39,983 nucleotides of DNA. It comes from an uncultured bacterium. GTDB lineage: Bacteria > CAYJRR01. The position numbers and the translations under genes were made by a program. This document shows, in pieces, positions 3,408 to 19,065 of the stretch (within the stretch, counting starts at the first letter, position 1; every line of letters begins with the position of its first letter). Below the pieces are notes generated by a model, which was given only the letters and a program-made list of their open reading frames with translations, made no database searches and had not been told where the DNA came from. The DNA lies in the NCBI GenBank assembly GCA_964372275.1, contig CAYJRR010000026.1, positions 1 to 39,983 of the forward strand, read 5' to 3'.

Positions 3408-4448
3408 CTACGCCGCTTTTTCCAAAAGGTCGAGGGCGCGGAACGGCTCCGGCGCGACGCCGAAGGTGATCTCCCGCCGGTAGCCGGCGGCGTCCCCGCC
3501 GACCTGGAACGGCATCGGCTCCGAGAAGCGGACCTGCACCGCCTCGACGAGGTAGTCCTCGATCGACGACGATTCGTAGCGTCCCTGCCAGATCGGGATC
3601 AGCCGGCGAACGGCCTCCCCCACCGGCGTCGTCGCGATCCGAAGCTGCATCATCCCGGGGACGATCCGGGCAAACGGGAACATCTTGAACCGGAACCCGT
3701 AGTAGGGGACGGTCCCCGCCGCCAGCATCTTGATCGGCCCCTGGTAGAGCACCTGACCGGGGGAGACCTGCCGCTCGAACAGGCCATGGGGGGTGGCCCG
3801 GTAGATCCGGCGGCCGGCGTTGATCACCCGCACCTCGGGGTCGGCCCGCCGAAGAAGTTGGTTGGGGACCGTCTTCCCGAACGCCGCAAGCAGGTACCCC
3901 GGAAGGCTCCCGACCACCTTCTTCAGGATCGCCGGCCGCGCCCGGTCTTTGAAAAACATGAAGTCGTTCAGGATCTGGGCGTCGTATCCGAACCCGACGA
4001 ACGGGGCCTGCACCCCTTCGCAGTCGATCAGGTCGAGGTCGGTGGTGGCGTGGCTCTCGGCCAGCGCCATCCGCAGGAGGTCTTCGGCCGGCCGGGTGCT
4101 CCCGAGGACGTCGGCAACGGCGTTCCCCGTCCCGAGCTTCAGCACGCCGAGCTCCGGCAGCGGCAACGCCGCGCTCGGATTCTGCCGGCGCATCGCATGG
4201 ATTTGATTACGGATCGTGGTGGCGACCTGCACCACCGTGCCGTCCCCGCCGCCGGCGACGATCCGCCGGAATCCGCGGCGGAGGGCCTCCTGGATCGCGT
4301 CCTCCGCCTCCTCGCGGGTGCGCGTGGAGATGACGGAAGCGCCCGGCACCGCCTCCTTCAGGCGGCGGGCGGTGGAACGACGGACCCCGCGTGCGTGCTC
4401 GTTGAGAAGAACGGTCAATCCTGCGCCTGGTGCGAAGGTGGCTCCCAT
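3408..4448 (-). CDS. Diacylglycerol/lipid kinase family protein
   Basis: AGGGDGT, LKLGTGNA, GFGYDA and C-terminal FQVGGD motifs of the DAGK catalytic/accessory domains. AAGGAG lies upstream of the ATG. Confidence 0.88.
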   Translation of the reverse strand: MGATFAPGAGLTVLLNEHARGVRRSTARRLKEAVPGASVISTRTREEAEDAIQEALRRGFRRIVAGGGDGTVVQVATTIRNQIHAMRRQNPSAALPLPELGVLKLGTGNAVADVLGSTRPAEDLLRMALAESHATTDLDLIDCEGVQAPFVGFGYDAQILNDFMFFKDRARPAILKKVVGSLPGYLLAAFGKTVPNQLLRRADPEVRVINAGRRIYRATPHGLFERQVSPGQVLYQGPIKMLAAGTVPYYGFRFKMFPFARIVPGMMQLRIATTPVGEAVRRLIPIWQGRYESSSIEDYLVEAVQVRFSEPMPFQVGGDAAGYRREITFGVAPEPFRALDLLEKAA

Positions 4449-4667
4449 ACGGTCGCGACGCTCCTTGTGAAGGGGTCCTCATCCTCCTGGGGGCCGGCCG
4501 CGTGCCCGGGGTCGACCGCCACGATGGGCAGACCCTACCCCGCCCCGGCGATCCGACCCAAACAGAAATCTTGTGGAGGCGGTCCGATAGCGTAAAAACG
4601 ACACGAATCGATGCGGTGGCGCCACACGTCGTGGCGAAGACGCGACAGCCCGTGGTAATCAGGCGGC

Positions 4668-5241: not shown

Positions 5242-5622
5242 ATGCCCGCGCATTCGCGCTCGGCCGGACCCGGACCCCAGGCGTTCATCCGCGTTGCGTC
5301 GCGCGCCGACGTGGCGACGGTTGGCGGCGCGCTCAAGGTGACGGTGAACGGCAAAGGGGTCGCCCTGTTCGACGCCGGCGGTGAGATCCATGCCGTCGAG
5401 AACGCCTGTCCGCACCGTGGGGCGCCGCTGGCGAACGGCCGGGTTCAGCCGATGACCGACGGCCTGTTCGTCATCTGCCCCGACCATGCCTGGCGCTTTC
5501 GCCTGACCGACGGCGTCTGCCCGGAGGCCGGACCGGAGTGCCGGCTGATGGTCTGGGACGTGCGCCTCGAGGGCGAGGAGATCCACCTCTCGCGCCTACC
5601 GCGCTTGATGGAGGATCCGTGA
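5242..5622 (+). CDS. Rieske [2Fe-2S] ferredoxin (NirD/dioxygenase-ferredoxin-like)
   Basis: Rieske boxes C-P-H (NACPHRGAPL) and C-x2-H (ICPDHAWRF). Confidence 0.88.
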   Translation: MPAHSRSAGPGPQAFIRVASRADVATVGGALKVTVNGKGVALFDAGGEIHAVENACPHRGAPLANGRVQPMTDGLFVICPDHAWRFRLTDGVCPEAGPECRLMVWDVRLEGEEIHLSRLPRLMEDP

Positions 5623-6566
5623 GCCGCCGCCGCGCGGACCGCGTGGCGCGGCGCGCGCCCCCCCGGCCCCGCGTCCGTCCCTGGAAACGGATCGCGTCGG
5701 AGCCGGTCGCCGACTACCGCATCTTTCGCGTGCGCCGGGATCGCTCCGTCTCCCCCCGGACCGGGCGCGCGCACGACTTCACCGTTCTCACCGGGGTCGA
5801 CTGGGTGAACGTCCTGCCCCTGACCCCCGACGGGAATGTCGTCTTCATCGAACAGTTCCGCCACGGGGTGCGGCGGACGACGCTCGAGCTCCCCGGAGGG
5901 ATGGTCGATCCCGGCGAGCGTCCGACGACGGCCGCCCGGCGGGAGCTTCGCGAGGAGACGGGCTACGCGGGCGGCCGACCCGTCGCGCTCGGCTGGGTCT
6001 TTCCCAACCCCGCCGTCCAGAACAACCGCTGCCACACCTTCCTGGTCCGCGGCGCGCGACGAGTCGCCCCGCCGTCGGTCGACGCCGCCGAGGACATCTC
6101 GACGCGGGAGATCCCGCTGGCCGACGTGCCGCGCCTGATCGCGAAGGGGCGCGTCCGGCACGCCCTGATCGTCGCGGCCTTCCACTGGCTGTGGCTCCGC
6201 GAGCGCACGCACGCGAGCGGACCGATCCGGGCCGTGCTCGCGATCGCCCTCCTTCTCGCGGCGGCGACGCCGGACGGCGCCCGCGCCGAGGCGATCGAGG
6301 ATCGAATCGCCCCGGCGTGGCTGTTGGCGCCGGTGGCAACGGCCCCCGACGCCCCGTTCGCGCGGTCCGACGCGCCGGTCCCCGACGACCGGCTGATCGT
6401 CGCCGGCTACGCCTGTTTCGACCTCGTTCCGGCGATCCTGGTGATCGGCGCGGCGGTGACCCTCGCCGGCTACGTGGGATACCAGGCGGTGAACGGCGCG
6501 GCGCCGGCCACGGGGGATTCGCTCGGAGCGCCCCCCGCGGCGGGGCCGATCCACGTTCGGTTCTAG
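5619..6566 (+). CDS. NUDIX hydrolase (ADP-ribose pyrophosphatase-like) with a hydrophobic C-terminal extension
   Basis: Nudix box GGMVDPGE-x5-ARRELREETG, EQFRHG, FPNP. Likely GTG start at 5619 overlapping the Rieske TGA (GTGA), rather than the track's 5538. Confidence 0.88.
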   Translation: MSRRRADRVARRAPPRPRVRPWKRIASEPVADYRIFRVRRDRSVSPRTGRAHDFTVLTGVDWVNVLPLTPDGNVVFIEQFRHGVRRTTLELPGGMVDPGERPTTAARRELREETGYAGGRPVALGWVFPNPAVQNNRCHTFLVRGARRVAPPSVDAAEDISTREIPLADVPRLIAKGRVRHALIVAAFHWLWLRERTHASGPIRAVLAIALLLAAATPDGARAEAIEDRIAPAWLLAPVATAPDAPFARSDAPVPDDRLIVAGYACFDLVPAILVIGAAVTLAGYVGYQAVNGAAPATGDSLGAPPAAGPIHVRF

Positions 6567-7072
6567 TATCCCTGCGATACGCGAACGCGGCGCCAGCCGG
6601 TGTCGGTCCAGACGGTTCGCTCGACGAGCGGACCGCCGTAGCCGTCGGCGTAGCCGGAGCTGCATCCGTAGCCGTATCGGTACCCGTAGCCGTATCCGGA
6701 GCCGGAGCCGTAGAGGTAGCGGCGGGCGTGGTAGGCGCCGTGGCGGCGGGCACGGGAGAGGTGCTCGCGGGTGTGGCGGAGCGACTCGCGCGCGTGGGTC
6801 ACGCCGTGATCGACGTCGTCCGCCAGGTGGTAGAAGTCGTGCGCCAGGCCGCCCTCCCCGTACCAGTAATGGAAGGCGTCGTGATTCGCTTCCCGCTGGA
6901 GATGGTCGACGTCGTGACGGAACTCCCCCTCGGCGTGCTCCTCGGCGTGGCGGTAGGCCTCCTCCTCGTGGTAGAGGCGGTGATCCCGATCGCCGGCGGA
7001 GGCGGCGGGTGCGGCGAGCAGGACGGCGGAGACGGCGCAGGTGGCGGCGAGTCGCGGGACGGGACGGTTCAT
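6563..7072 (-). CDS. Secreted His-rich protein with HxxxH hendecad repeats and a Gly/Tyr-rich tail
   Basis: ATG at 7072 preceded by GAGAGG. Sec-type signal MNRPVPRLAATCAVSAVLLAAPAASA, high GC3 codon usage and strict His periodicity. This is the C-terminal 169 aa of track ORF 6563..7618. Confidence 0.8.
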   Translation of the reverse strand: MNRPVPRLAATCAVSAVLLAAPAASAGDRDHRLYHEEEAYRHAEEHAEGEFRHDVDHLQREANHDAFHYWYGEGGLAHDFYHLADDVDHGVTHARESLRHTREHLSRARRHGAYHARRYLYGSGSGYGYGYRYGYGCSSGYADGYGGPLVERTVWTDTGWRRVRVSQGY

Positions 7073-7162
7073 GGCGTGCCTCTCGGGGTTGGTCGGTGGT
7101 CGGACGGGTCGTCCTGCGTACGTCGACGCCCGGCGGTCGGCGGCTATTCGAGGGAGGATGGC

Positions 7163-7825
7163 GTGAGCGCGTCGGACCGGGGGACGCCCCCCTTCCCGCC
7201 GGATCCCCCCGGAGACCCGCTGGCGCGACTGGCGGCGAGGCTCGAACGCCGCGTGCGAGAGATCGGGGCGCTGCGGTCGATGTCGGCGCACGTGACGATC
7301 TGCCTGGACGGACCGGCGCAGCTCCGACTCTTCAGCCGGTTCGACGCGCAGGCGGCGCGCGAGGGGTTGACGATCGACGAGCTCGACGTCGACTCGGACG
7401 CCGACCGGGCGCGGATCCGCGACTGGAGCCGCGACCGCGCCCGGGAGCGAGGCCTTCCGGAACCCGACTGGAACGAGTCGAACGGGTTCCGGCGCACGAT
7501 CGTCGACGAGCCCGATCCGGTCCCGCTCCTCTCCGGACGGCTCGAATGCGTGCGGCGCCGGTTTCCGGACCGGCGCATCGTCGAGCTGTCCGTCCTCTCC
7601 GAGCGCATCGACCGCCACGGTGTCGAATCGCGCGTGCTGTCGGTCGTGGTGGAGGGCCCCACGCTCGCCCCTGCCGCCACGACCCCGGTCGTCCTCGCAT
7701 CGTCAGGAGGGGATCCCACCCGACTCCGCCGGGAGGAGGCGTTCTGGGACGCGGCCGACCGCTGGGCGGAGGGCGAGGCCCGCCGGCTCGGCGCAACCTT
7801 CACCCGCGCCCAGGGCGGTGACTAG
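7163..7825 (+). CDS. Hypothetical protein (220 aa)
   Basis: GGAGG followed by GTG at 7163. Globular-looking composition (..AHVTICLDGPAQLRLF..VLSVVVEG..FWDAADRWA..). This is the C-terminal part of track ORF 6191..7825. Confidence 0.65.
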   Translation: MSASDRGTPPFPPDPPGDPLARLAARLERRVREIGALRSMSAHVTICLDGPAQLRLFSRFDAQAAREGLTIDELDVDSDADRARIRDWSRDRARERGLPEPDWNESNGFRRTIVDEPDPVPLLSGRLECVRRRFPDRRIVELSVLSERIDRHGVESRVLSVVVEGPTLAPAATTPVVLASSGGDPTRLRREEAFWDAADRWAEGEARRLGATFTRAQGGD

Positions 7826-7909: not shown

Positions 7910-9649
7910 TTAGAACATCTGCTCGAGCGATTGGATCTCGTTCAGCAGCTTGTGCGCGGGCGCCGTGCGATCCGCCGGGAGGACGGCGTGCGCCAGCGCG
8001 GGCGGATAGCGGACCGAGTACTCCACCCGCCAGGTGCGGCTCTGCTTCGGCCCGATCTTCGCGTCCCAGTGCAGCACCCCTTCGCGGTCGGGCTTCACCT
8101 CGGGTTGGATGCGAAGGATCTCGACCTCCACGTCGGCCAGCGCGGAGACCGGGACACGCTCGGCCAGGTCGAGGGCCACCGCCTCCTCGGAGAGGTTCTC
8201 GGCGGAGATCAGCCACGAGACGGTGAGTCGCGTTCGCTTGCCGCTGCGCTCGACGGAGCTCCGCTTGCGGTCGACGGTGCGCGCCAGCTTCACGCGGTCG
8301 GCGACCCCCGCGAAGACCTGGAACGCTTCCCCCTGCGAGACGAAGGGAAGCTCGCTGTTCCCGAGGAACGCGCCGTCGAGGAACAACGAGACCTTCCCCG
8401 GGAGCAGGGGGCGCGGCCCGGCGTTGACGAGGTCGAGCGTGCGCGCGGCGTTCAGCGACAGCTCGGGGGCGGCGACCAGGCGCTGCGCGGCCGCAAGATC
8501 GACCGCGCCGATCGGAAGCCGCACGGATTTCCCGTCGGCCCGGACGGTGCGCGACCCGGGCACGTGGAAGTGCGCGGTCGTCCCGCGCTCGCGCACCGAT
8601 TCGAAGGCGCGCTCGACGCGGCGCTGGGTCTCCTCCAGGACGGAGAGACTGGCCGCGATCTCCGGTCGGGCCTTGCCGATCGCCTGGTTCTGGCTCGAGT
8701 AGGACGACAGGGCGCGCTGGAAGCTCGCGCCGGCCCGGGCCGCCAAGCCGGCGAGCACCGGCCCGCCGCCGAACGTCAGCGCCTCCAGCTGGGGGACGCG
8801 GAGGGTGTCGCTCGGACGCTGCGTCGACAGCGAGATCTTCGCCCCCTCCCAGTCCTCGCCGGTGTTCTGGGTGACGAGCGCAAACTGCGCGATCCCCACC
8901 GTCGAGTTGCCGCCCGACGCGCGTAGCTCGGTCAACGGTTCCCAGGTCGCTCCCGGCGTGAGGTAGGTCAGGGAGAGCGATGCGCGCCGTGAATCGCCGT
9001 CGGCGGCGATCTCCACCACCACCGACCGCTCCTCGAGCTGCGCGCTCGCCTGCACGTCGGCGAGCCTCTTCGACCGGGCGGCGAGCTCGGGTTGGAGCGC
9101 CTGCCGCTTGCGCTCGACCTCGCGGCGGGCGGCGGCGATCCGCCGCAGGCGCGCCCCCACGAAGTCGAGCGTCTCGGCGAAGGTCGCGGTCTTCACGTCC
9201 CGGACCGCCATCTCCTTGGGGAGCTTGTCGAGCGAGAAGGCGCGGATCGCCTCGACCTGCGCCGCTTCGGCGTCGAGCACCTTCGCCTCGTCGTTCAACG
9301 CGGCGATCTCGCCGGCCACCTCGCGCACCGCCGCCTCGGCCTTCGCGACCTCCGCCTCCGGGGACCGCGCCAGGAACGACCGGACGACCTGCACGTCGAG
9401 GATCCGGCCGGCCTCCGGGGGAACGACCGCCACCCGCACCGACTCCTCGTCGATCCAGCCGGGCAGGTTGGCGAAGACGTATCGCTCCCCGTCGCGCGGA
9501 ACGTCGACGGAGGCCGTGCGCGTGACCTGCGCCCGATCGGCGTAGAGCGTGACTTCGGTGACCTTCGAGACCAACGTCCGCTCGTTCGACGCGGCCGCCG
9601 CCGACACCCCACCCAGGGCCGCGAGCGCGGCCAGGACCGTCCGTTTCAT
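7910..9649 (-). CDS. DUF4140/DUF4139 domain protein (mucoidy inhibitor MuiA-like), exported
   Basis: Signal-like MKRTVLAALAALGGVSAAAA, VTEVTLYADRAQVTR, coiled coil, LTYLTPGATWEP, QNTGEDW, LSTQRP, LLPGKVSLFLDGAFLG, ERVPVS, GVLHW. GAAGGGGG precedes ATG 9649. Confidence 0.9.
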   Translation of the reverse strand: MKRTVLAALAALGGVSAAAASNERTLVSKVTEVTLYADRAQVTRTASVDVPRDGERYVFANLPGWIDEESVRVAVVPPEAGRILDVQVVRSFLARSPEAEVAKAEAAVREVAGEIAALNDEAKVLDAEAAQVEAIRAFSLDKLPKEMAVRDVKTATFAETLDFVGARLRRIAAARREVERKRQALQPELAARSKRLADVQASAQLEERSVVVEIAADGDSRRASLSLTYLTPGATWEPLTELRASGGNSTVGIAQFALVTQNTGEDWEGAKISLSTQRPSDTLRVPQLEALTFGGGPVLAGLAARAGASFQRALSSYSSQNQAIGKARPEIAASLSVLEETQRRVERAFESVRERGTTAHFHVPGSRTVRADGKSVRLPIGAVDLAAAQRLVAAPELSLNAARTLDLVNAGPRPLLPGKVSLFLDGAFLGNSELPFVSQGEAFQVFAGVADRVKLARTVDRKRSSVERSGKRTRLTVSWLISAENLSEEAVALDLAERVPVSALADVEVEILRIQPEVKPDREGVLHWDAKIGPKQSRTWRVEYSVRYPPALAHAVLPADRTAPAHKLLNEIQSLEQMF

Positions 9650-9738
9650 CCGGAATCCCCCTTCGTCCTCGGTTGGAACCCGCGACAGGCGGATTCCTTC
9701 CGAGGCCGCGTTGGACGTCGGCGCGGTCGACGGCATTC

Positions 9739-10996: not shown

Positions 10997-13900
10997 CTAC
11001 TCCACGATCATCCGGTCCCCGGCGCCGCGGCCGAAGGTCTCGGGTGCGTACATCTCCTCCGCCTTCGGCGGCGGGACGACGAACGTGCCCGGCGTCGTGG
11101 CGCGCGCGACGTAGGCGTAGCTCCAGACCCCTTCCCAGACCAGGGCGCTGAACGCTTCGGCCCGCTCGTCGCGCAGGTTCTGGTGGTCGTACCAGGGGCG
11201 GAGCCAGATCCACCAATGGCCGCCGTGCCGGTCGCCGAATCCCGGCCCGCCGATCGTGGCGACCGTCGGATCCGGTCCGGGCGGGAGGGCCCCGGTGGTC
11301 GCGAGAGCCGGGTTGAGCGCCTCGAGGCCGGCCGGAAGCGGATCGACCAGCGCCACGTGGTAGCGGCGCGACGGCGCGACCATCGTCAGTTTCACGCGCA
11401 CGCGGCGGCCGGCCTTCACGCGCCAGGTTCCGTCGGCATCGCGCCGCACGTCGTCCGGATCGTCGACCCCTTCGTAGACGCGTTCGACGGTGAAGCCGGC
11501 GTCGTACGGTTTCGGCGTGAGGTCGTCCGGCGCGTAGCGGAGGCCGACGCGGTAGTAGAGCCGCCCGGCCCCCTCCTTGGCGACGATCAGGTCGGTGGTC
11601 CCGCGTTCCGGAAGCGCGGCCAACGGGATCTCGACGTGGTGCCGCTCCGTGGTGCGCCCCTTGAAGGCGTGCTCGCCGGCGTACCGCTCCCCCAGCCACG
11701 CGCGGGCCACGAAGTCCGGCGTCGCCTTCTCGAAAGCCTGGAAATACCGGTCGAGGGCCAACAGGACGAAGACGTTCTCCTGCGTGTTCCCCCAGCGCCC
11801 CGCCTTGCGGTGCGCGAGGAGACCGGAGACGAGCTTGGGGATCAGGTCGCTCCTGGGATCGGCGCCGATCAAGCCGTCCAGCACCAGCGCGTCGGCGCGG
11901 CGGTCGGAGTGGAGGAGGAGGTGCGCACCGTCGCCGTAGGAGACGGCGAAGTGCGCGTTTCCCGCCGTCTCGACGACGCGGTTTCCGAGGTGGCGCAGGA
12001 TGGCGTCGGTCTCCTTGCGGGATCCCGGGTCGCGGTGCAGGACGGGGAGGATCCACGCCAGCCCCTCGAGGGGCGTCTTCTCCGCGCCGCCGGATTCGCG
12101 CAGCAGCGCGCGGGCCCGCCCCGGGTCGGCATCGCCGTAGAGACTTCGCACGGACAGGGCGTAGGCGATCAGCGCGCGACGGCTCTCGATACCGTAGTGG
12201 GAGGGGATCCGCTGCTCGATCGACCGGAGATATCCGAGCGCGCGCGTCCGCGCCGGCTCCGGGACGGCGAACCCCTTCTCCTGCGCGCGCGCGAAGGCGT
12301 GCGCGACGTGGATCGAGAGGTAGGGCCACGAATCGTCCCCGCGGCGCCAGAAGGCGAATCCGCCGTCGTCGTTCTGCAGCCGCACGAGCCGCTCCAGGTC
12401 GCGCTCGACGGCGGCGACGATCTCCGCCGGTTCCGGCAGTCCTTCCGCTTCGAACGCCGCGAGCACATCGCGCAGCGCGGCGATCGACAGGACGCGCGAC
12501 GCGAGCTGCTCCGAGCACTCGAAGGGATAGGAGACGAGGTAGAGGACGGCGTCGGTCAGCGCCTGCAACGCCGTCGACGAGGTGGTGACCTCGAGGCCCC
12601 CGAACCCCTTCACGCTCCCGGCCGGTGCGACGACCGGCTGGGTCACCGCCCCGGCCTCGTCGAGCGTCCCGTAGGTCGCGAACCCCTCCGTGGTCGCCGG
12701 CGTCCAGACCGGCCACTTCACTTCGGCCGCGTCGGCGGCGCCCTTGCGGGCGGCTCCGTCGCGGGAGCCGGATCCGCTCGCGGCGGCGGCCACCTGGAGG
12801 TGGACGCGTCCGGCCCGATCCGCGGCGGCCGGGAAGCGGACCTCCGCGCGGTCGTTGGCCGGAACCGTCACGCGGCGCCCCGCCCCCGCGGTGATGCGCA
12901 GGTTCGACGCCCTCACCGCCACGTCGACCTCGAGCGGGGCGTCGGTCTGGTTCTGCACCACGACCGGCAACTCGAACCGGTCGCCGAAGTTCGAAAAACG
13001 CGGCGGGGAGGGCCGCACCATCAACGGCAGGCGGGCGGTGATCGCCGACTCCCCCTTGCCGAACTCGTTGCGGCGCGCGGCGGCGACCGCCATCACCCGG
13101 TAGCGGGTGAGGTTGTCGGGAAGCTTCACCGCCACGTCGACCCGACCGCGGCTGTCCGTCGGGAGAGCGGCGGCGAAGAAGGCGAGCGCCGAGAAGTCGG
13201 TGCGCATCCGGATCGCAGGCTGCGGCCCGCCCGGCTCCGGTGCCGCCATCGGCGCCCCGGCGAACGACTCCTGCAGCACCACACCGTCGAACTCCATCTC
13301 GGCATCGGCAACCGCTCGCGTCTTCGCCCTCGCGCCACCGGGGACCCGGTTCAGGCGAGGCTCCGGCGAGAGCAGGACGTCGTCGGGACGGGCGAGGAGG
13401 ATCGATTCGCGAAGGTGGTGATCGTCGACGCCGGGATCGCGCTCCCGATAGAGGGTGGCGATCGGATCGGGGGTGCGATAGCCGCTGAGCGAGAGCACCG
13501 CTTCGTCGACGACGACCAGCGCCACCTCGCTGCCGGCGACCGGACGGCCGGCGGCGTCGGTCACCACGACCTCGACCTCCGTCTCGCCCCCGGGCTCGAG
13601 CTTCCGGTCGCGCGGGGTCACCTCCAGCGACAACGTTCGCACGCGCGCCGGGATCGGAAGGGAGAGCGAACCGCCCGCGAAGGCCGGACGTTCGGGAAGC
13701 GTCGGATCGACCTCCCCGTCGTCGTTGGTCCGCGGCGCGCTGCCGACCACGTCGACCTGCACGTGGACGTTGGGAGTGAAGCCCTCCTCGATCGGGATCT
13801 TCACCGTGTGCGAGACCCCTTTCATCGCGAAGCGCTCGGCGCGGACGATCCCGGAACGGCGGAGCGTCATCACCGCCTCGCCCCCCTCCCAGGGGGCGAG

Positions 13901-16900
13901 CACCAGCACCTCGGCCGTCTCTCCGGCGCGGTACTCCCTCTTGTCCGGGATCAGCGTCACCGTCTCGCGCTCCACCGTCCGCCGCGGCGGCGCCTTACCG
14001 CCGGCGACCCAGACCGAATGGCGGCTGCGATTCGGCCGCCCCTCGGCGTCGGCGACGAGCGCCGTGATCCGGTGCAGGCCACCCTCTTTCGGCTTCACCG
14101 CGCACGCCACCGGCTGCGTGCCCGACCGAAGGGAGCAGTTCTGCGGATCGCGCGCGACCTGGCGCCACTCCCCTTCGATCGGCTCCCAGTCCATCCGCTC
14201 GACGACGATCGCGATCTCCCGCTCGCCGATCGCCTTCCCGTCGAGGTCGGTGACGATCGCCTCGATCGCGATCGGCGCACCGGCCTGCACGAAGGTGCGC
14301 GCCGTCCGGAGACCGACGTAGAGCTCGGCGGGGTGGACGAGCCAGCTCGCCGACGCGCTCCAGGCCTGTCGATTGACGTCGAGGACGGTCGCCTCCGCCG
14401 TCACCTGCGTCGGTTGCGGCGGCCGGACCGCCGGGACGTCGACGCGCAGGTGGTGGGCGCCATCGCCCCCCGTCTTCGCTTCGTAGGTCTCGACCTCCAC
14501 CTCGCCGCCGTCGCCGTGCGACTCCCACCACGGAACGAACGTCCCGAAGGTCCAGCCGTCGCGGTTCGGGGGGACGAACGTCGCGCGCCTCGCCGTCACC
14601 CGCCAGCTCGTCTCGGCGCCGGCGAGCGCGCCGCCCGCGTAATAGGTGGCGCGGACGCTCGCGGTCGCGTGCCCGCCGACGAAATGCGGGCCCTCCGATG
14701 CCTCGGCGGCCACCTCGAACTCGGGACGGCGGAACTCCTGCACCTCGATCGGATGGTGGTGCTCGTGATCGCCGAAGGCGCTCGGGCCTTCGATCTCGAG
14801 GTCGGCCGTGCCGAGGTTCATCGTCGGCGGCAGCTTCAGCGTCAGGTCGAAACCGCCGGCCGGTCCGATCCACTGCGTCCCCTTGTCGATCTCGTTCCCC
14901 TGCGAATCGACGAGGCGGTAGCCCACTCCGGTCCGCGCCGACCGGTCGTCCAGCAACGGCACGACGTCGCCCTGCGGCCCGAGACCGACGCGGCGGACCC
15001 ATCCCTTCACCCGGACCTCTTCGCCGGGGCGGTACATCCCCCGGTCGTCGAAGACCACGAATCGAAGCGCGTCCGGCCGCTCGGCGCGCTGCCAGCCGCC
15101 GCTCCCCCACCACTGGACCTGACGGGGCAGGATCGCGACGTCCCCTCCGCGCCGCGCCACGAGCACCGGCGCCTCGAGCATCGTCAGCGGCACGGTGGCG
15201 AGTCCGCCGGCGTCGGTGGTGCGCGTCTCGGGTCCGAGCGAGAGCTCGACACCGGCCAACGCCGATCCGTCCGTCAGGTTCGTGACAAATGCCAGGAGCT
15301 GCGTGGCATCGGAGAAGGCGTCAAGGCCGATCCGGGTCCGCTGCACCCAGGCGATGAACCGCTGCCGGTCCTTCTTCCGGACCGCCGGCTCGATCACCAC
15401 CACCGCGTGGCCGAGGTCGCCCGGAAAGGCCGCGGCCAGGTCGACGCGCGTCTCCGTCAGCTCGTCCTCCTCGCCGGCGACGTCGACGGACCTCTCGAGC
15501 AGCTTCCGGCCGGGGGGCTGCGCCTTCGCGTCCTCGCGGAAGAAGTCGCTCAAGTAGGCGCGGAACGACGGCCAATCGGCGGGCGTCACCGCCCAGGCGC
15601 CGATGCGCAGCGACCGGTGGTTCACGCTGAAGACGGAGAGCGTCGGTTCGGCCGACGGATCGAGCACGACGAACGGGCCGCCCGGCACGCTCATCTGCGG
15701 CTCGGCCTTTCCCACCTTGAAGGTGAAAGCGGCGTCCCGGCCGAGCGTTTGCCCGAAGGTGTCCGGAAGGTCGGCCGAGAGCGTGACACGGTAGGCGGTC
15801 CGACCCTTCGTCCGGCCCGCGACCGAGAGCCACGTGCCGTTCGCCGACACCTTCATCCCGGGGATCGGCGGTTCGGCGGTCACCATCTCCTTGCGGAACC
15901 GCTTCGCGTCGATCGGATTGGCGAGCTCGAACTGGAACGGCGTGTGCGGGCGGCAGTCGTTGCGCCAACCGCAGCGGTGCGAGACGACCTCCATCGGTCC
16001 GAAGGTCCGGAAGGAGTACTCCTGGACCTTCTCCGTGCGGCGCTCCCCTTCCGCCGACGGCGCACCGGGAACGATCTCGACGCGGACCTCGGCGCCGGCC
16101 GGAAGCGGCTCCTCCGTCCGCACCGCGATCCAGCGACCGTCCGCCGTTTCGCGGGACCTGCGCAGCGCATCGGGGTCGGCGTCGACCTCCTCGCGGGTGG
16201 CGAGGCGAAGCTTCGCGCCGCGGATCCGGATCCACGGAAGGACGGTCGCCGGATCGATCGTCTGGTCGAAGGCGAGGACGATCGTCGGCTGACGCGTGCT
16301 CGGCCCGCCGACCGGGTGGGAGGCGACGAGCGTCGGCGGCGGCGTGCGGAAGGAGAACGACGCCGCCGCGGCGAGCGTCCCGCCGGCCGCCGAGCGCGCG
16401 CCGGCCGGAACCTCGACACGGTACGCCGTCGCCATCGGGAACCGCCCGCCGTCCGGCTCGAACAGGAGGGTCCGGGTGCCGATCCAGCGCCATCGCCCCG
16501 GCACCGGCGGATGCAGTCGCACGGGGACCTCGGCCGTGGCGAGCGCGTCGACCGACGCGAGGGCGACCATCGGCTGCGAGAAGGTGATCGAGAGCGACGG
16601 CGCGAGAGGGACGTCGCCGTCCGGCTGGTGACGAAGGACCTCGACTTGAGGTGCGGGGAGATCCCCGGGGGAGCCCGACGGGCGAAACGATCCGGCGGCG
16701 CCGACCGCCTCCGACGGCGGAAACACGGTCTTCGCCGCGGCCGCTCCGGGACGCGGAGGGGGAAGGGAGCGATCCCGGAGGGCGAACGGCGCCGTCTCGG
16801 GCTCGCGTGGCAACGGGGGAAGGCGTGCGAGGACGGCGTCGGTGTCGGAGTCGCTCAGCCTCGAGGCCCGGGCCGGCGCGGCGAGATCGGCCTTCGGCGC

Positions 16901-17068
16901 GTCGGGGACCCCTTCGCCCAGCCGCAGGACCACGTCGGTCGATGCGTCGTCGAGCATCAGACTCTCCCCTCCGGAATCGGGCGCCGGGGCGTGCCCCGCG
17001 GTCCCCGGCCGTGCCGACGGGGAGCAGGAGGCGGCGAGGAGCGCGAGCACGCACCAGACCCGACGCAT
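10997..17068 (-). CDS. Bacterial alpha-2-macroglobulin family lipoprotein with N-terminal Ig-like (Big_5-type) repeats
   Basis: Lipobox MRRVWCVLALLAAS-C, ITFSQPM Ig repeats, DRGMYRPGE, VQEFRRPEFEV, AVVDEAVL, LPDNLTRYRVMA, thioester motif YPFECSEQ (CSEQ at 12506-12517), QNDDGGF, WGNTQE, DPLPAGLE, AEEMYAPE. Confidence 0.95.
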   Translation of the reverse strand: MRRVWCVLALLAASCSPSARPGTAGHAPAPDSGGESLMLDDASTDVVLRLGEGVPDAPKADLAAPARASRLSDSDTDAVLARLPPLPREPETAPFALRDRSLPPPRPGAAAAKTVFPPSEAVGAAGSFRPSGSPGDLPAPQVEVLRHQPDGDVPLAPSLSITFSQPMVALASVDALATAEVPVRLHPPVPGRWRWIGTRTLLFEPDGGRFPMATAYRVEVPAGARSAAGGTLAAAASFSFRTPPPTLVASHPVGGPSTRQPTIVLAFDQTIDPATVLPWIRIRGAKLRLATREEVDADPDALRRSRETADGRWIAVRTEEPLPAGAEVRVEIVPGAPSAEGERRTEKVQEYSFRTFGPMEVVSHRCGWRNDCRPHTPFQFELANPIDAKRFRKEMVTAEPPIPGMKVSANGTWLSVAGRTKGRTAYRVTLSADLPDTFGQTLGRDAAFTFKVGKAEPQMSVPGGPFVVLDPSAEPTLSVFSVNHRSLRIGAWAVTPADWPSFRAYLSDFFREDAKAQPPGRKLLERSVDVAGEEDELTETRVDLAAAFPGDLGHAVVVIEPAVRKKDRQRFIAWVQRTRIGLDAFSDATQLLAFVTNLTDGSALAGVELSLGPETRTTDAGGLATVPLTMLEAPVLVARRGGDVAILPRQVQWWGSGGWQRAERPDALRFVVFDDRGMYRPGEEVRVKGWVRRVGLGPQGDVVPLLDDRSARTGVGYRLVDSQGNEIDKGTQWIGPAGGFDLTLKLPPTMNLGTADLEIEGPSAFGDHEHHHPIEVQEFRRPEFEVAAEASEGPHFVGGHATASVRATYYAGGALAGAETSWRVTARRATFVPPNRDGWTFGTFVPWWESHGDGGEVEVETYEAKTGGDGAHHLRVDVPAVRPPQPTQVTAEATVLDVNRQAWSASASWLVHPAELYVGLRTARTFVQAGAPIAIEAIVTDLDGKAIGEREIAIVVERMDWEPIEGEWRQVARDPQNCSLRSGTQPVACAVKPKEGGLHRITALVADAEGRPNRSRHSVWVAGGKAPPRRTVERETVTLIPDKREYRAGETAEVLVLAPWEGGEAVMTLRRSGIVRAERFAMKGVSHTVKIPIEEGFTPNVHVQVDVVGSAPRTNDDGEVDPTLPERPAFAGGSLSLPIPARVRTLSLEVTPRDRKLEPGGETEVEVVVTDAAGRPVAGSEVALVVVDEAVLSLSGYRTPDPIATLYRERDPGVDDHHLRESILLARPDDVLLSPEPRLNRVPGGARAKTRAVADAEMEFDGVVLQESFAGAPMAAPEPGGPQPAIRMRTDFSALAFFAAALPTDSRGRVDVAVKLPDNLTRYRVMAVAAARRNEFGKGESAITARLPLMVRPSPPRFSNFGDRFELPVVVQNQTDAPLEVDVAVRASNLRITAGAGRRVTVPANDRAEVRFPAAADRAGRVHLQVAAAASGSGSRDGAARKGAADAAEVKWPVWTPATTEGFATYGTLDEAGAVTQPVVAPAGSVKGFGGLEVTTSSTALQALTDAVLYLVSYPFECSEQLASRVLSIAALRDVLAAFEAEGLPEPAEIVAAVERDLERLVRLQNDDGGFAFWRRGDDSWPYLSIHVAHAFARAQEKGFAVPEPARTRALGYLRSIEQRIPSHYGIESRRALIAYALSVRSLYGDADPGRARALLRESGGAEKTPLEGLAWILPVLHRDPGSRKETDAILRHLGNRVVETAGNAHFAVSYGDGAHLLLHSDRRADALVLDGLIGADPRSDLIPKLVSGLLAHRKAGRWGNTQENVFVLLALDRYFQAFEKATPDFVARAWLGERYAGEHAFKGRTTERHHVEIPLAALPERGTTDLIVAKEGAGRLYYRVGLRYAPDDLTPKPYDAGFTVERVYEGVDDPDDVRRDADGTWRVKAGRRVRVKLTMVAPSRRYHVALVDPLPAGLEALNPALATTGALPPGPDPTVATIGGPGFGDRHGGHWWIWLRPWYDHQNLRDERAEAFSALVWEGVWSYAYVARATTPGTFVVPPPKAEEMYAPETFGRGAGDRMIVE

Positions 17069-17190
17069 GGCGGAGGAGCGTAACACCGCCCACTCCAGAC
17101 ACCGGCTCCGCCCGGCCGGTTCCCTCCCGGCCGTCCCACGCGAGCGCAACGCTTGATCTGCACGGACGGGAGGGCGTATGACGCCCGCCG

Positions 17191-19065
17191 ATGAGCGACC
17201 TTCCGATCCAGCATTCGGCGGCCTTCCGGGCGAGACGCGCCCTCAACTGGTTCCCGCTCGGCCTGGCCTACGCCTTCCTCTACATGGGGCGCTACAACCT
17301 CACGGTCGCCAAGAACGCGCTCGGCGACCTGATGACCAAGGAGGACTTCGGATTCATCTTCCTGGTCGGCACCTGGGTCTACGGCACCGCGTTCCTGCTC
17401 AACGGACCGCTGACCGACAAGATCGGCGGACGGCGCTCGATGCTGGTGTCGCTGTTCGGCTCCGCGGCGGCGAACGCGGCGATGGGGTTCTTCCTCCACG
17501 CGATGCTGACCGGCTGCGACCCGGGGAGCGTCGACATCCGCTTCTGGATGAGCGCCCTCTACGGCGTGAACATGTACTTTCAGTCGTTCGGGGCGGTGGC
17601 GATCGTCAAGGTCAACGCCTCGTGGTTCCACGTGCGCGAGCGCGGCGGGTTCTCCGGGATCTTCGGCACGATGATCTCGTCGGGAATCTTCATGGCCTTC
17701 ACCGTGAACGGCTGGATCCTGCAGCTCCTGAAGCCGGCCGATGGAGGCCTGCTGCCGAGCTGGCACGTCTTCTTCGTCCCGGCGGCGCTCCTCGGATCGA
17801 TCTTCGTGGTGGAGTCGTTCCTCCTGCGCGATCGACCCTCGCAGGCCGGACACGCCGACTTCGACACCGGGGACGCCGACTCCGGCGCCGACGCCGGCGC
17901 GCCGGTGAGCGTCGGGTCGATCATGCGGAGGATCTTCACCAACCCGATCATCCTCACGATCGCGGCGATCGAGTTCTGCACCGGGCTCGTCCGCCAGGGA
18001 GTGATGCAGTGGTTCCCGATCTACCTGAAAGAGGTCTGGGTCCTGCCGTCGAAGCACCCGCTGGTGAACGGCGATGTCACGGGACGACTTCCGCTGTTCG
18101 TGACCGTCTTCGTCGTTGCGGTCGCGCTGTTCCTGTGGGCGCGGCGGCTCAAAGGCAGCCAGCGGCGTCTGGCGATCGTCGCCGGAGCGCTCGTCGCGCT
18201 CGCCCCCTTCTCGGTCTGGGGTTGGGGGGGGTTGCTGTTCGTCGCCGGCGTGATCGGAGGCAACGTCGCGGGGTACGTCAGCGACCTGTTCTTCCAATCG
18301 CGGCGCGCGCCGGCCGCCGGCGGCCTCGACCTGCTGCTGACGATCTGCGCCGTCGTGATGGTCTTCTCGCTCGGCGGGACGACTTCCGAGGTGGGATGGG
18401 CGGTCCCGGCGAAGGGCAAGGAGGGGCAGCCGCCACCGCCGGCGCTCCAGGTCGGCGATCGCATCGTCGAGGTGGCCGGTCGAAACGGATTCTCCAACTG
18501 GAAGGAGATCAGCGAAACGGTGCGCTGTCTCCCCGCCGCGTGCGGCCGGCCGAAGTGCCAGACCGAGATCGCCCACTGGGATCCCGACGCCTGCACCTGC
18601 AGCACGAAGGCATCGCCCGATCCCTCGATCGCCCCGTCGGACGGGACGATCGCGATGACGGTGGTTCGAGGCGGCGAGGAGATGGAGCTCACGATCCGGG
18701 ATCCGAAGGCGACGATGATGGCGGGGGACTCGCGGGCGCTGGCCGCCGGACCGCGGCTGACCCTTTCGCCCTGGGTCCTGGGGGTGCTCGGATTCCTGAT
18801 GTCGCTGTGCGTGATCGGAACGCACGGACTGCTTTCGGGCACGGCGACGATGGACTTCGGCGGACGGCGCGGCGCCGCCACCGCCGTCGGCGTCATCGAC
18901 GGGTTCGTCTACCTCGGAAGCGGCGTGCAGGCGCTGGCCCTGGGAAGTCTCACCACCAAGGACTGGAGCTACTGGCCGATCTTCCTCGTCCCCTTTTCGC
19001 TGGCCGGCTTCCTGCTCTGCCTCCCGATCTGGAACTCCAAGCCCCGAAAGGGCGGCGGGCATTAG
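17191..19065 (+). CDS. MFS transporter, organophosphate:Pi antiporter (GlpT/UhpT)-like, with an inserted PDZ-like domain
   Basis: YAFLYMGRYN (TM1 Arg), GPLTDKIGGRR motif A, WFHVRERG, LRDRPSQAG, LVRQG..WFPIYL (TM7 Arg), GYVSDLFFQSRR, GVIDGFVYLG. Insert LQVGDRIVEVAG..TVVRGGEEMELTI. Confidence 0.9.
   Translation: MSDLPIQHSAAFRARRALNWFPLGLAYAFLYMGRYNLTVAKNALGDLMTKEDFGFIFLVGTWVYGTAFLLNGPLTDKIGGRRSMLVSLFGSAAANAAMGFFLHAMLTGCDPGSVDIRFWMSALYGVNMYFQSFGAVAIVKVNASWFHVRERGGFSGIFGTMISSGIFMAFTVNGWILQLLKPADGGLLPSWHVFFVPAALLGSIFVVESFLLRDRPSQAGHADFDTGDADSGADAGAPVSVGSIMRRIFTNPIILTIAAIEFCTGLVRQGVMQWFPIYLKEVWVLPSKHPLVNGDVTGRLPLFVTVFVVAVALFLWARRLKGSQRRLAIVAGALVALAPFSVWGWGGLLFVAGVIGGNVAGYVSDLFFQSRRAPAAGGLDLLLTICAVVMVFSLGGTTSEVGWAVPAKGKEGQPPPPALQVGDRIVEVAGRNGFSNWKEISETVRCLPAACGRPKCQTEIAHWDPDACTCSTKASPDPSIAPSDGTIAMTVVRGGEEMELTIRDPKATMMAGDSRALAAGPRLTLSPWVLGVLGFLMSLCVIGTHGLLSGTATMDFGGRRGAATAVGVIDGFVYLGSGVQALALGSLTTKDWSYWPIFLVPFSLAGFLLCLPIWNSKPRKGGGH

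Follow-up and report, generated by a model that had tools for sequence, protein, structure and literature searches.

We examined a gene for a small histidine-rich protein, here designated P0001, on contig CAYJRR010000026.1 (assembly GCA_964372275.1) of an uncultured bacterium. The analysed stretch of DNA, positions 1 to 39,983 of this contig, is referred to below as the window, and the gene lies on its minus strand (Table 1). The reading frame ends at position 6563 and contains no stop codon as far back as a GTG at 7618; we assigned the start to the ATG at 7072 because of the Shine-Dalgarno-like site in front of it, the codon-position GC content, and the equivalent Met, which is the start in all relatives in the family alignment. 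From 7072 down, the GC content at codon positions 1, 2, and 3 is 0.75, 0.50, and 0.88, typical of the 70.6% GC source genome, whereas between the GTG at 7618 and this start the frame has values of 0.88, 0.56, and 0.76, and there the plus strand appears to be coding instead. A consensus scan of positions 6300 to 7500 yielded neither a sigma-70-like promoter nor an intrinsic terminator. Contig sets from two sequencing runs match the open reading frame (ORF) with 0 differences, although both possibly derive from the source sample and are thus not independent.

The encoded precursor consists of a signal peptide, two runs of histidine pairs separated by a short turn, a Gly/Tyr-rich tail, and a short C-terminal segment. 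The original prediction had described a secreted protein, and this reading held: A-S-A precedes the predicted cut, and the corresponding AxA columns are aligned in all 10 family members. The source genome contains five Omp85-family matches, which indicates that an outer membrane is present and that a Sec product would be periplasmic; P0001 is therefore probably Sec-exported and hence periplasmic. Its composition is rich in Glu, Arg, and Tyr, the mature protein contains no Met, and the single Cys sits in the tail. The GSGSGYGYGYRYGYG tail reported previously is present, and the C-terminal end, which had been likened to a beta-hairpin, is predicted as one. Imperfect direct repeats of 12/18 nucleotides (4 copies, 71% to 100% identical) at positions 6638 to 6721 encode the Gly/Tyr tail, which suggests expansion of this segment by slippage. 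The P0001 gene is real, and its product is a small exported protein.

Counted from GDRDH (residue 27 of the precursor), the histidines fall at positions 5, 9, 16, 20, 27, 31, 38, and 42, and again at 52, 56, 63, 67, 74, 78, 85, and 89, which accounts for all 16 His of P0001. The gaps between them read 4,7,4,7,4,7,4, then 10, then 4,7,4,7,4,7,4, such that two runs of four HxxxH pairs flank the YGEGG turn, with His codons extending from 6982 to 6728. Recomputation of these positions gave a result identical to that of the original prediction. The runs are exact mirror images: each His at position i of the first helix pairs with one at position j of the second, with i+j=94 for all 8 pairs.

As a chance statistic, we counted HxxxH-x6-HxxxH motifs in mature residues 1 to 95. 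P0001 contains 6 such motifs, and the maximum among 1,000,000 composition-preserving shuffles was 3, with 0 reaching 6. A statistic based on the best two residue classes modulo 11 was rejected as uninformative, its value of 8 being reached by 6,043 of 100,000 shuffles; the one-residue shift of register at the turn makes it ill-posed. The six-frame translation of the 4.64 Mb source genome, 9.27 million residues in all, contains the two-pair motif 16 times, 6 of them in the P0001 ORF; the other 10 occurrences are isolated singles, and no run of three or more pairs was found elsewhere in that translation. The residues between the histidines are not repeated, as had also been claimed, and the His region shows no 33-nucleotide DNA periodicity. 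The hendecads (11-residue units) are not recent DNA repeats, and only the Gly/Tyr tail has short direct repeats.

Table 1. Features of the P0001 gene (window positions) and of the DUF2231 genes next to its relatives (locus positions)
Feature	Position	Strand	Basis
Whole gene, 169-residue precursor plus stop codon (P0001)	6563..7072	-	Translation, codon-position GC, start in relatives
Shine-Dalgarno-like GAGAGG, 6 nucleotides 5' of the ATG	7079..7084	-	Direct sequence reading
Signal peptide, residues 1-26; Arg3, Arg7, hydrophobic core, A-S-A before predicted cut	6995..7072	-	Inspection
His run 1, residues 31-68; four HxxxH pairs, 11-residue spacing	6869..6982	-	Inside predicted helix 22-71
Turn YGEGG, residues 71-75	6848..6862	-	G72 invariant in family; residues 72-75 predicted non-helical
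His run 2, residues 78-115; four HxxxH pairs, mirrors run 1	6728..6841	-	Inside predicted helix 76-121
Gly/Tyr-rich low-complexity tail, residues 119-147	6632..6718	-	Predicted disordered
C-terminal 22 residues, beta-hairpin (strands 149-156 and 159-166), ending in GY	6566..6631	-	AlphaFold2 prediction
DUF2231 genes of the relatives' loci	L009:4105-4797, L010:1470-2093, L011:8479-9123, L012:4120-4770, L014:1117-1620, L015:441-1130		

A rare family with a conserved histidine register

Searches with P0001 alone were largely silent: the Pfam scan produced sub-threshold noise alone (DUF3958, 15.7 bits versus a cut-off of 26.3), the NCBIfam scan no match, the PDB sequence search nothing below E 0.25, and a word-indexed search scored 0 of 514 candidates. 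An exhaustive phmmer search of 1.84 billion representatives recovered three proteins, with E-values of 3.7e-5 to 1e-3, and a profile of these four sequences, run against a collection of 5.8 billion proteins, led to a family of ten proteins of metagenomic or unnamed source, all annotated merely as "hypothetical." Seven of them, the P0002-like subfamily, are closely related (55% to 80% identical); alignments were built of this subfamily (A3) and of the whole family of ten (A2).

A signal peptide, two HxxxH-x6 runs, and a Gly-containing turn are present in all 10 members. Exactly 4+4 pairs are found in 7 of the 10, with one pair lost or altered in P0003, P0004, and P0010. The ten-row alignment contains 15 invariant columns, 11 of which are His; within the hendecads, positions a and e are His in 74/74 repeats, position g is mostly Arg and k mostly Glu, and the hydrophobic residues are found at c, d, f, h, and j. 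All seven P0002-like relatives also end in a Tyr/Gly-rich tail, shorter than that of P0001, which is absent from P0003 and P0004. Outside the His columns, P0001 is identical to its relatives in 8 to 15 of 72 to 80 columns, against a composition expectation of 6.4 to 7.7 (four pairs tested), with shuffle fractions of 0.004 to 0.10. The His register is thus kept while the other positions drift nearly to chance, a positive outcome of the test that the original prediction had itself proposed, and this indicates that the His positions are under selection. P0001 and the main subfamily probably share a common ancestor, short of proof.

Further occurrences were sought in several collections. The source genome yielded no second copy; the scan of species-representative genomes with patterns derived from the subfamily alignment gave 600 pattern matches, none of which was confirmed; and a search with the family alignment for longer fused forms found none, which is weak evidence. 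Among 61 genomes, 9 including the source genome matched at E up to 1, the matches outside the source genome being short and at chance level, the best of them with an E-value of 0.005 over 34 signal-peptide residues. The 60 comparison genomes share only the domain with the source genome, and a phylum-level search returned the source genome alone. In the ESM Atlas, the best score was 0.83, to unnamed clusters and below a meaningful level. As far as these collections reach, the family is rare.

Predicted hairpin and relation to known histidine-rich proteins

AlphaFold2 run on the single sequence gave a hairpin with a mean predicted local distance difference test (pLDDT) score of 67. With the ten-row alignment as input, helices were predicted at residues 22 to 71 and 76 to 121, with pLDDT of 84 to 95 over residues 31 to 110, in agreement with the antiparallel helical hairpin proposed from the sequence pattern. 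Residues 122 to 146, corresponding to the Gly/Tyr stretch, have pLDDT <50 and are predicted to be disordered, and the blocks 151 to 160 and 161 to 169 scored 90 and 75, respectively, when the single sequence was modelled, falling to 66 and 63 once the alignment was used. Structure searches with Foldseek and VIA-align returned generic long helical hairpins only (Z ≤ 9.2; Foldseek E ≥ 0.57). The top Foldseek row for the first model, the APP/APLP E2 domain (3umi, a zinc complex; E 0.57, non-significant), was set aside as an unrelated eukaryotic multi-helix domain. A dimer prediction for two copies of residues 27 to 125 scored 0.00 and bears neither way on dimerisation.

A comparable architecture has been described by Hartmann and Lupas as the histidine zipper, in which His residues interdigitate between two antiparallel hairpin helices (PMC8616854). 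According to that account, the first such structure came from Serendipita indica (PDB 5LOS), and further zippers occur in "a wide range," among them three bacterial CASP14 targets that assemble as antiparallel homodimers: T1083 from Nitrosococcus oceani, T1084 from Meiothermus silvanus, and T1087 from Methylobacter tundripaludum (PMC8616854). The published zippers place His at helix-helix interfaces, within or between chains; their members are just 15% to 23% identical and are not always detected by HHpred, and on function the authors, as their account puts it, offer speculation only, with metal scavenging as a hypothesis (PMC8616854). The fungal DELD family is likewise described as secreted proteins of 101 to 135 residues with regularly spaced His and Ala, two predicted helices broken at a conserved Gly, and a C-terminal tail of distinct function (PMC3192844).

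P0001 shares two features of such proteins, namely a predicted antiparallel helical hairpin and repetitive His on both helices, an arrangement kept in 10/10 members; as in the zippers, the protein is small and a Gly lies at the junction of the helices, and as in the DELD family it is exported and carries a separate C-terminal tail. Unlike the zippers, P0001 is rich in Glu, Arg, and Tyr rather than Ala, has a Gly/Tyr-rich tail, and has relatives tied to DUF2231 and copper operons (see below). A strict HxxxH-x6 hendecad that places two His in every 11 residues may also set it apart from the zippers. For Serendipita indica Dld1 (DELD family, PDB 5LOS), Nostadt et al. reportedly found in 2020 that it binds metal ions. 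Dld1 is also tabulated under metal ion homeostasis (PMC9610748). No solved histidine-zipper entry appeared in the PDB searches (phmmer and hmmsearch) or in the Foldseek and VIA-align lists, and the absence of 5LOS and of 3u8v (see below) from the structure-search lists does not exclude either.

The sole PDB sequence touched by the family profile was SmbP (3u8v, Nitrosomonas europaea), a helical protein, at a non-significant E-value of 6.1. SmbP is described as a periplasmic protein of 9.9 kDa that binds divalent metals, Cu(II) and Ni(II) among them (PMC12955753). P0001 resembles it in being small, His-rich, and probably periplasmic, whereas the His residues of SmbP lie mostly 7 residues apart in the profile alignment (heptad type), in contrast to the HxxxH-x6 spacing of the P0001 family. 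Membership in the SMBP family (PF16785) was rejected, as no member reached the 29-bit cut-off and no row appeared at E up to 10. Searched with PF16785, the source genome gave two weak matches elsewhere (E 0.06 and 0.5) and none at the P0001 gene, and in 401 genomes the SMBP family gave 0 matches, with the controls likewise silent. A Pfam scan of all 10 members at E up to 10 listed no SMBP, LTXXQ, or Metal_resist match, with the limit that HMMER filters remove most matches above about E 0.1; membership in the CpxP/Spy/ZraP group was rejected on the same absence of LTXXQ and Metal_resist listings.

Copper storage proteins (Csp) are Cys-lined four-helix bundles in which an inner stripe of a single ligand type binds many metal ions. 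The concept of a one-ligand stripe is shared with P0001, in which the ligand is His rather than Cys and the predicted fold a two-helix hairpin; with one Cys, located in the tail, two predicted helices, and no homology found, P0001 was not assigned to this group. SilE is described as a periplasmic metal "sponge" that is encoded beside a CusCFBA-type efflux system, binds several metal ions through motifs that contain His and Met, and stays disordered as long as no Ag+ is bound (PMC5008109). P0001 is similar to SilE/PcoE of the sil/pco operons in being small and probably periplasmic, and membership was rejected given the absence of Met from the mature protein, the confidently predicted hairpin, and the absence of sequence similarity. 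A literature search on hendecad histidine metal proteins returned nothing relevant.

The original prediction had recognised no named family. This stands for sequence families, none of which was matched in Pfam or NCBIfam, and not for the underlying concept, which has been published in the form of the histidine zippers and SmbP. The hairpin architecture is therefore not new. What is new here is an unnamed sequence family, its strict two-His-per-hendecad register, its Gly/Tyr tail, and the link of the relatives to copper resistance and DUF2231.

Genomic context of the relatives and of P0001

Genomic context was available for seven metagenomic loci of the P0002-like subfamily. In 6/6 loci with downstream DNA, the gene following the His gene, within about 70 nucleotides, encodes a DUF2231 membrane protein. 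These DUF2231 proteins carry a His-rich C-terminal tail of their own, GHHHHH...DHDHAH (GHHHHH followed by Asp/His repeats), as well as conserved membrane His residues. Genes for copper or heavy-metal efflux or oxidation adjoin the His gene at 5/7 loci. The order at L009 is HMBD lipoprotein, outer-membrane efflux protein, multicopper oxidase, His gene, and DUF2231; at L010, the C-terminus of an RND pump is encoded upstream, and genes for two YbjQ_1 proteins (putative "heavy-metal-binding") and for a tyrosinase follow downstream; L011 and L012 both have a divergent P-type ATPase with an N-terminal HMBD, together with an HMBD lipoprotein; and L014 has a divergent outer-membrane efflux protein. 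At L013, a group II intron-type reverse transcriptase (L013:3-1070, minus strand) stands alone upstream of the His gene. By predicted gene content, the relatives' loci are a neighbourhood of copper and heavy-metal export and oxidation. The two YbjQ_1 genes and the tyrosinase gene of L010 lie on the minus strand (L010:2014-2586, 2583-2951, and 3492-4472), and one of the YbjQ_1 proteins has an Asp/His-rich N-terminus.

Eight GTDB loci with DUF2231 homologues, seven from Flavobacteriales/Bacteroidetes metagenome-assembled genomes and one from a deltaproteobacterial one, were inspected for comparison. A hendecad His ORF was found near none of them (0/8), which indicates that the pairing of the His gene with DUF2231 is specific to the relatives' lineage. 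In the Flavobacteriales/Bacteroidetes set (L018 to L024; GC about 0.6), at least the DUF2231 homologue of L020 is preceded (L020:3463, plus strand) by a lipoprotein-like ORF in which repeats rich in His and Met are combined with a C-terminal stretch that contains Cys, and which may represent a different small metal-binding partner at the same position. A literature search for DUF2231 in connection with copper returned nothing, DUF2231 being essentially without literature.

The nearest neighbours of the P0001 gene in the window are a convergent NUDIX hydrolase gene and a divergent, unassigned ORF; further neighbours include a DUF4139/4140 protein, a Rieske protein, and a cobalamin adenosyltransferase, among others. 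The product of the NUDIX gene (5538-6566, plus strand) is extended at its C-terminus by about 130 residues that include hydrophobic stretches, and the stop codon of this gene overlaps that of the His gene by 4 nucleotides. The divergent ORF (7259-7825, plus strand), which has a coding-like codon-position GC content and no Pfam match, likely starts at the Met of MSAHVTICLDG. Just past it lies a gene (7910-9736, minus strand) for a 608-residue protein that combines DUF4140 and DUF4139 domains with a signal-like N-terminus, and positions 10997 to 17242 (minus strand) encode a 2,081-residue bacterial alpha-2-macroglobulin with MG2, bait region, A2M, and bMG10 domains.

Candidate function and rival explanations

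On balance, we favour the interpretation that P0001 is a periplasmic multi-site transition-metal binder, a bacterial representative of the "histidine zipper" type of coiled-coil hairpin. The metals are most likely Cu(II), Zn, or Ni. The analysis shows the sequence pattern and its conservation, the predicted fold, the export signals as judged by inspection, and the gene neighbourhood of the relatives; metal binding, its stoichiometry, the orientation of the His stripes, and the oligomeric state are inferred, and the metal role of P0001 is supported indirectly, through the copper and heavy-metal gene clusters of the relatives. The exported metal sponge of the original prediction was thus upheld in part: the relatives lie in such clusters, whereas the window gene lies outside any metal cluster.

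In the mechanism that we propose, P0001 would be exported by Sec to the periplasm and fold there as a straight 11-residue-repeat hairpin, with His at positions a and e mirrored about the Gly turn. The His stripes may meet across the hairpin, an arrangement that we modestly prefer to outward-facing stripes because of the analogy with the published zippers and the exact mirror symmetry. Facing stripes would create four His4 sites, spaced 16 to 17 Angstrom apart and with ligands contributed by both helices; otherwise, the HxxxH pairs could form eight bidentate His2 sites, aided by flanking Glu and Asp. With facing stripes, the hydrophobic seam formed by positions c, f, and j would remain free for dimerisation, an arrangement described for the "Tuna" target. 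The protein would buffer metals in the periplasm or hand them to export or oxidation systems; for the operon-borne relatives, the metal would be periplasmic copper (or Zn/Ni), and the ATPase, pump, oxidase, and His-tailed DUF2231 protein would act alongside. The Gly/Tyr tail and the terminal beta-hairpin would constitute a separate, variable appendage. A more specific version of this proposal, in which a hendecad histidine zipper holds four His4 sites and the relatives pair with the His-tailed DUF2231 protein as a relay or sink for copper (or Zn/Ni) beside CopA-type ATPases, Cus-type pumps, and multicopper oxidases, is put forward only tentatively.

Several observations weigh against the favoured interpretation. 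No metal-related gene lies near the P0001 gene within the 40 kb window, and the one DUF2231 gene, the multicopper oxidases, and the HMBD genes of the source genome are all on other contigs. The seven loci that provide the context are few and mutually related, L011 and L012 being nearly the same sequence. The E-values that connect P0001 to the subfamily of the copper clusters (3.7e-5 to 1e-3) stem largely from the His columns, such that convergence is possible. Finally, the c/f/j seam of P0001, with its 3-4-4 spacing, lies about 150 degrees from the His stripe, a position that would fit outward-facing His as well as zipper packing. Each helix has two candidate contact faces and, by height bookkeeping, either could form layers within the hairpin; the i+j=94 symmetry fits His facing His, and the seam permits the opposite packing.

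The opposite packing underlies a rival reading, in which a hairpin held together by the seam exposes its His stripes on the outside, where metal bridges between molecules would build a sequestering polymer or matrix in the periplasm or at the surface, with the Tyr/Gly tail perhaps oxidatively crosslinked. The location of the P0001 hydrophobics at c/f/j, opposite the His stripe, speaks for such a metal-crosslinked assembly, as do the disordered Gly/Tyr-rich tail common to 7/9 relatives and the tyrosinase (L010) and multicopper oxidase (L009) encoded near relatives. We nonetheless regard it as unlikely: the family also has many hydrophobic residues at d and h, alongside the His stripe, P0003 and P0004 have no tail, and the interfacial His of the published zippers argue for the other orientation. 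We give still less credence to a pH- or stress-responsive chaperone or sensor-modulator resembling Spy, CpxP, or ZraP, in which protonation of the histidines, rather than chelation, would switch folding or partner binding. Sixteen His titrating near neutral pH on a periplasmic helical hairpin would suit this role, and so would a window copy without metal-related neighbours, but the lack of LTXXQ and Metal_resist matches among the 10 members runs counter to it, and the neighbours of the relatives are copper and heavy-metal genes rather than envelope-stress genes.

The heme alternative raised in the original prediction found no support and appears very improbable to us. A heme or porphyrin bound by bis-His ligation between the helices, in concert with the DUF2231 membrane protein, would be in keeping with the facing His of helical bundles in many heme proteins and with the conserved membrane His of DUF2231. 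However, neither the surroundings of the window gene nor the relatives' loci contain heme-handling genes, a density of 16 His within 85 residues, next to acidic residues, resembles ion chelation rather than discrete heme pockets, and the structure searches gave no standout heme-protein match. Least credible of all is a non-functional frame, open by chance in 70% GC DNA or left as a decaying orphan. Such a frame would explain why there are no close homologues and why neither a promoter nor a terminator emerged from the consensus scan, but it is at odds with GC3 and GC2 values (0.88 and 0.50, for the third and second codon positions) typical of the source genome's genes, with the Shine-Dalgarno-like site, the signal peptide, and the distant relatives of the same architecture, and with a His pattern that is absent from 1,000,000 shuffles.

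SmbP-type proteins are described as already in use as small tags for metal affinity and solubility, a purpose that the hairpin predicted here, 95 residues long and with 16 ordered His, could likewise serve. The family adds a strictly periodic and easily mutated example to the histidine zippers, on whose function those who solved the structures can only speculate, and the copper and efflux clusters of the relatives, together with the DUF2231 partner, turn a structural curiosity into a testable proposal. Should the relay or sink with DUF2231 prove true, it would provide the first physiological role for both histidine zippers and DUF2231.

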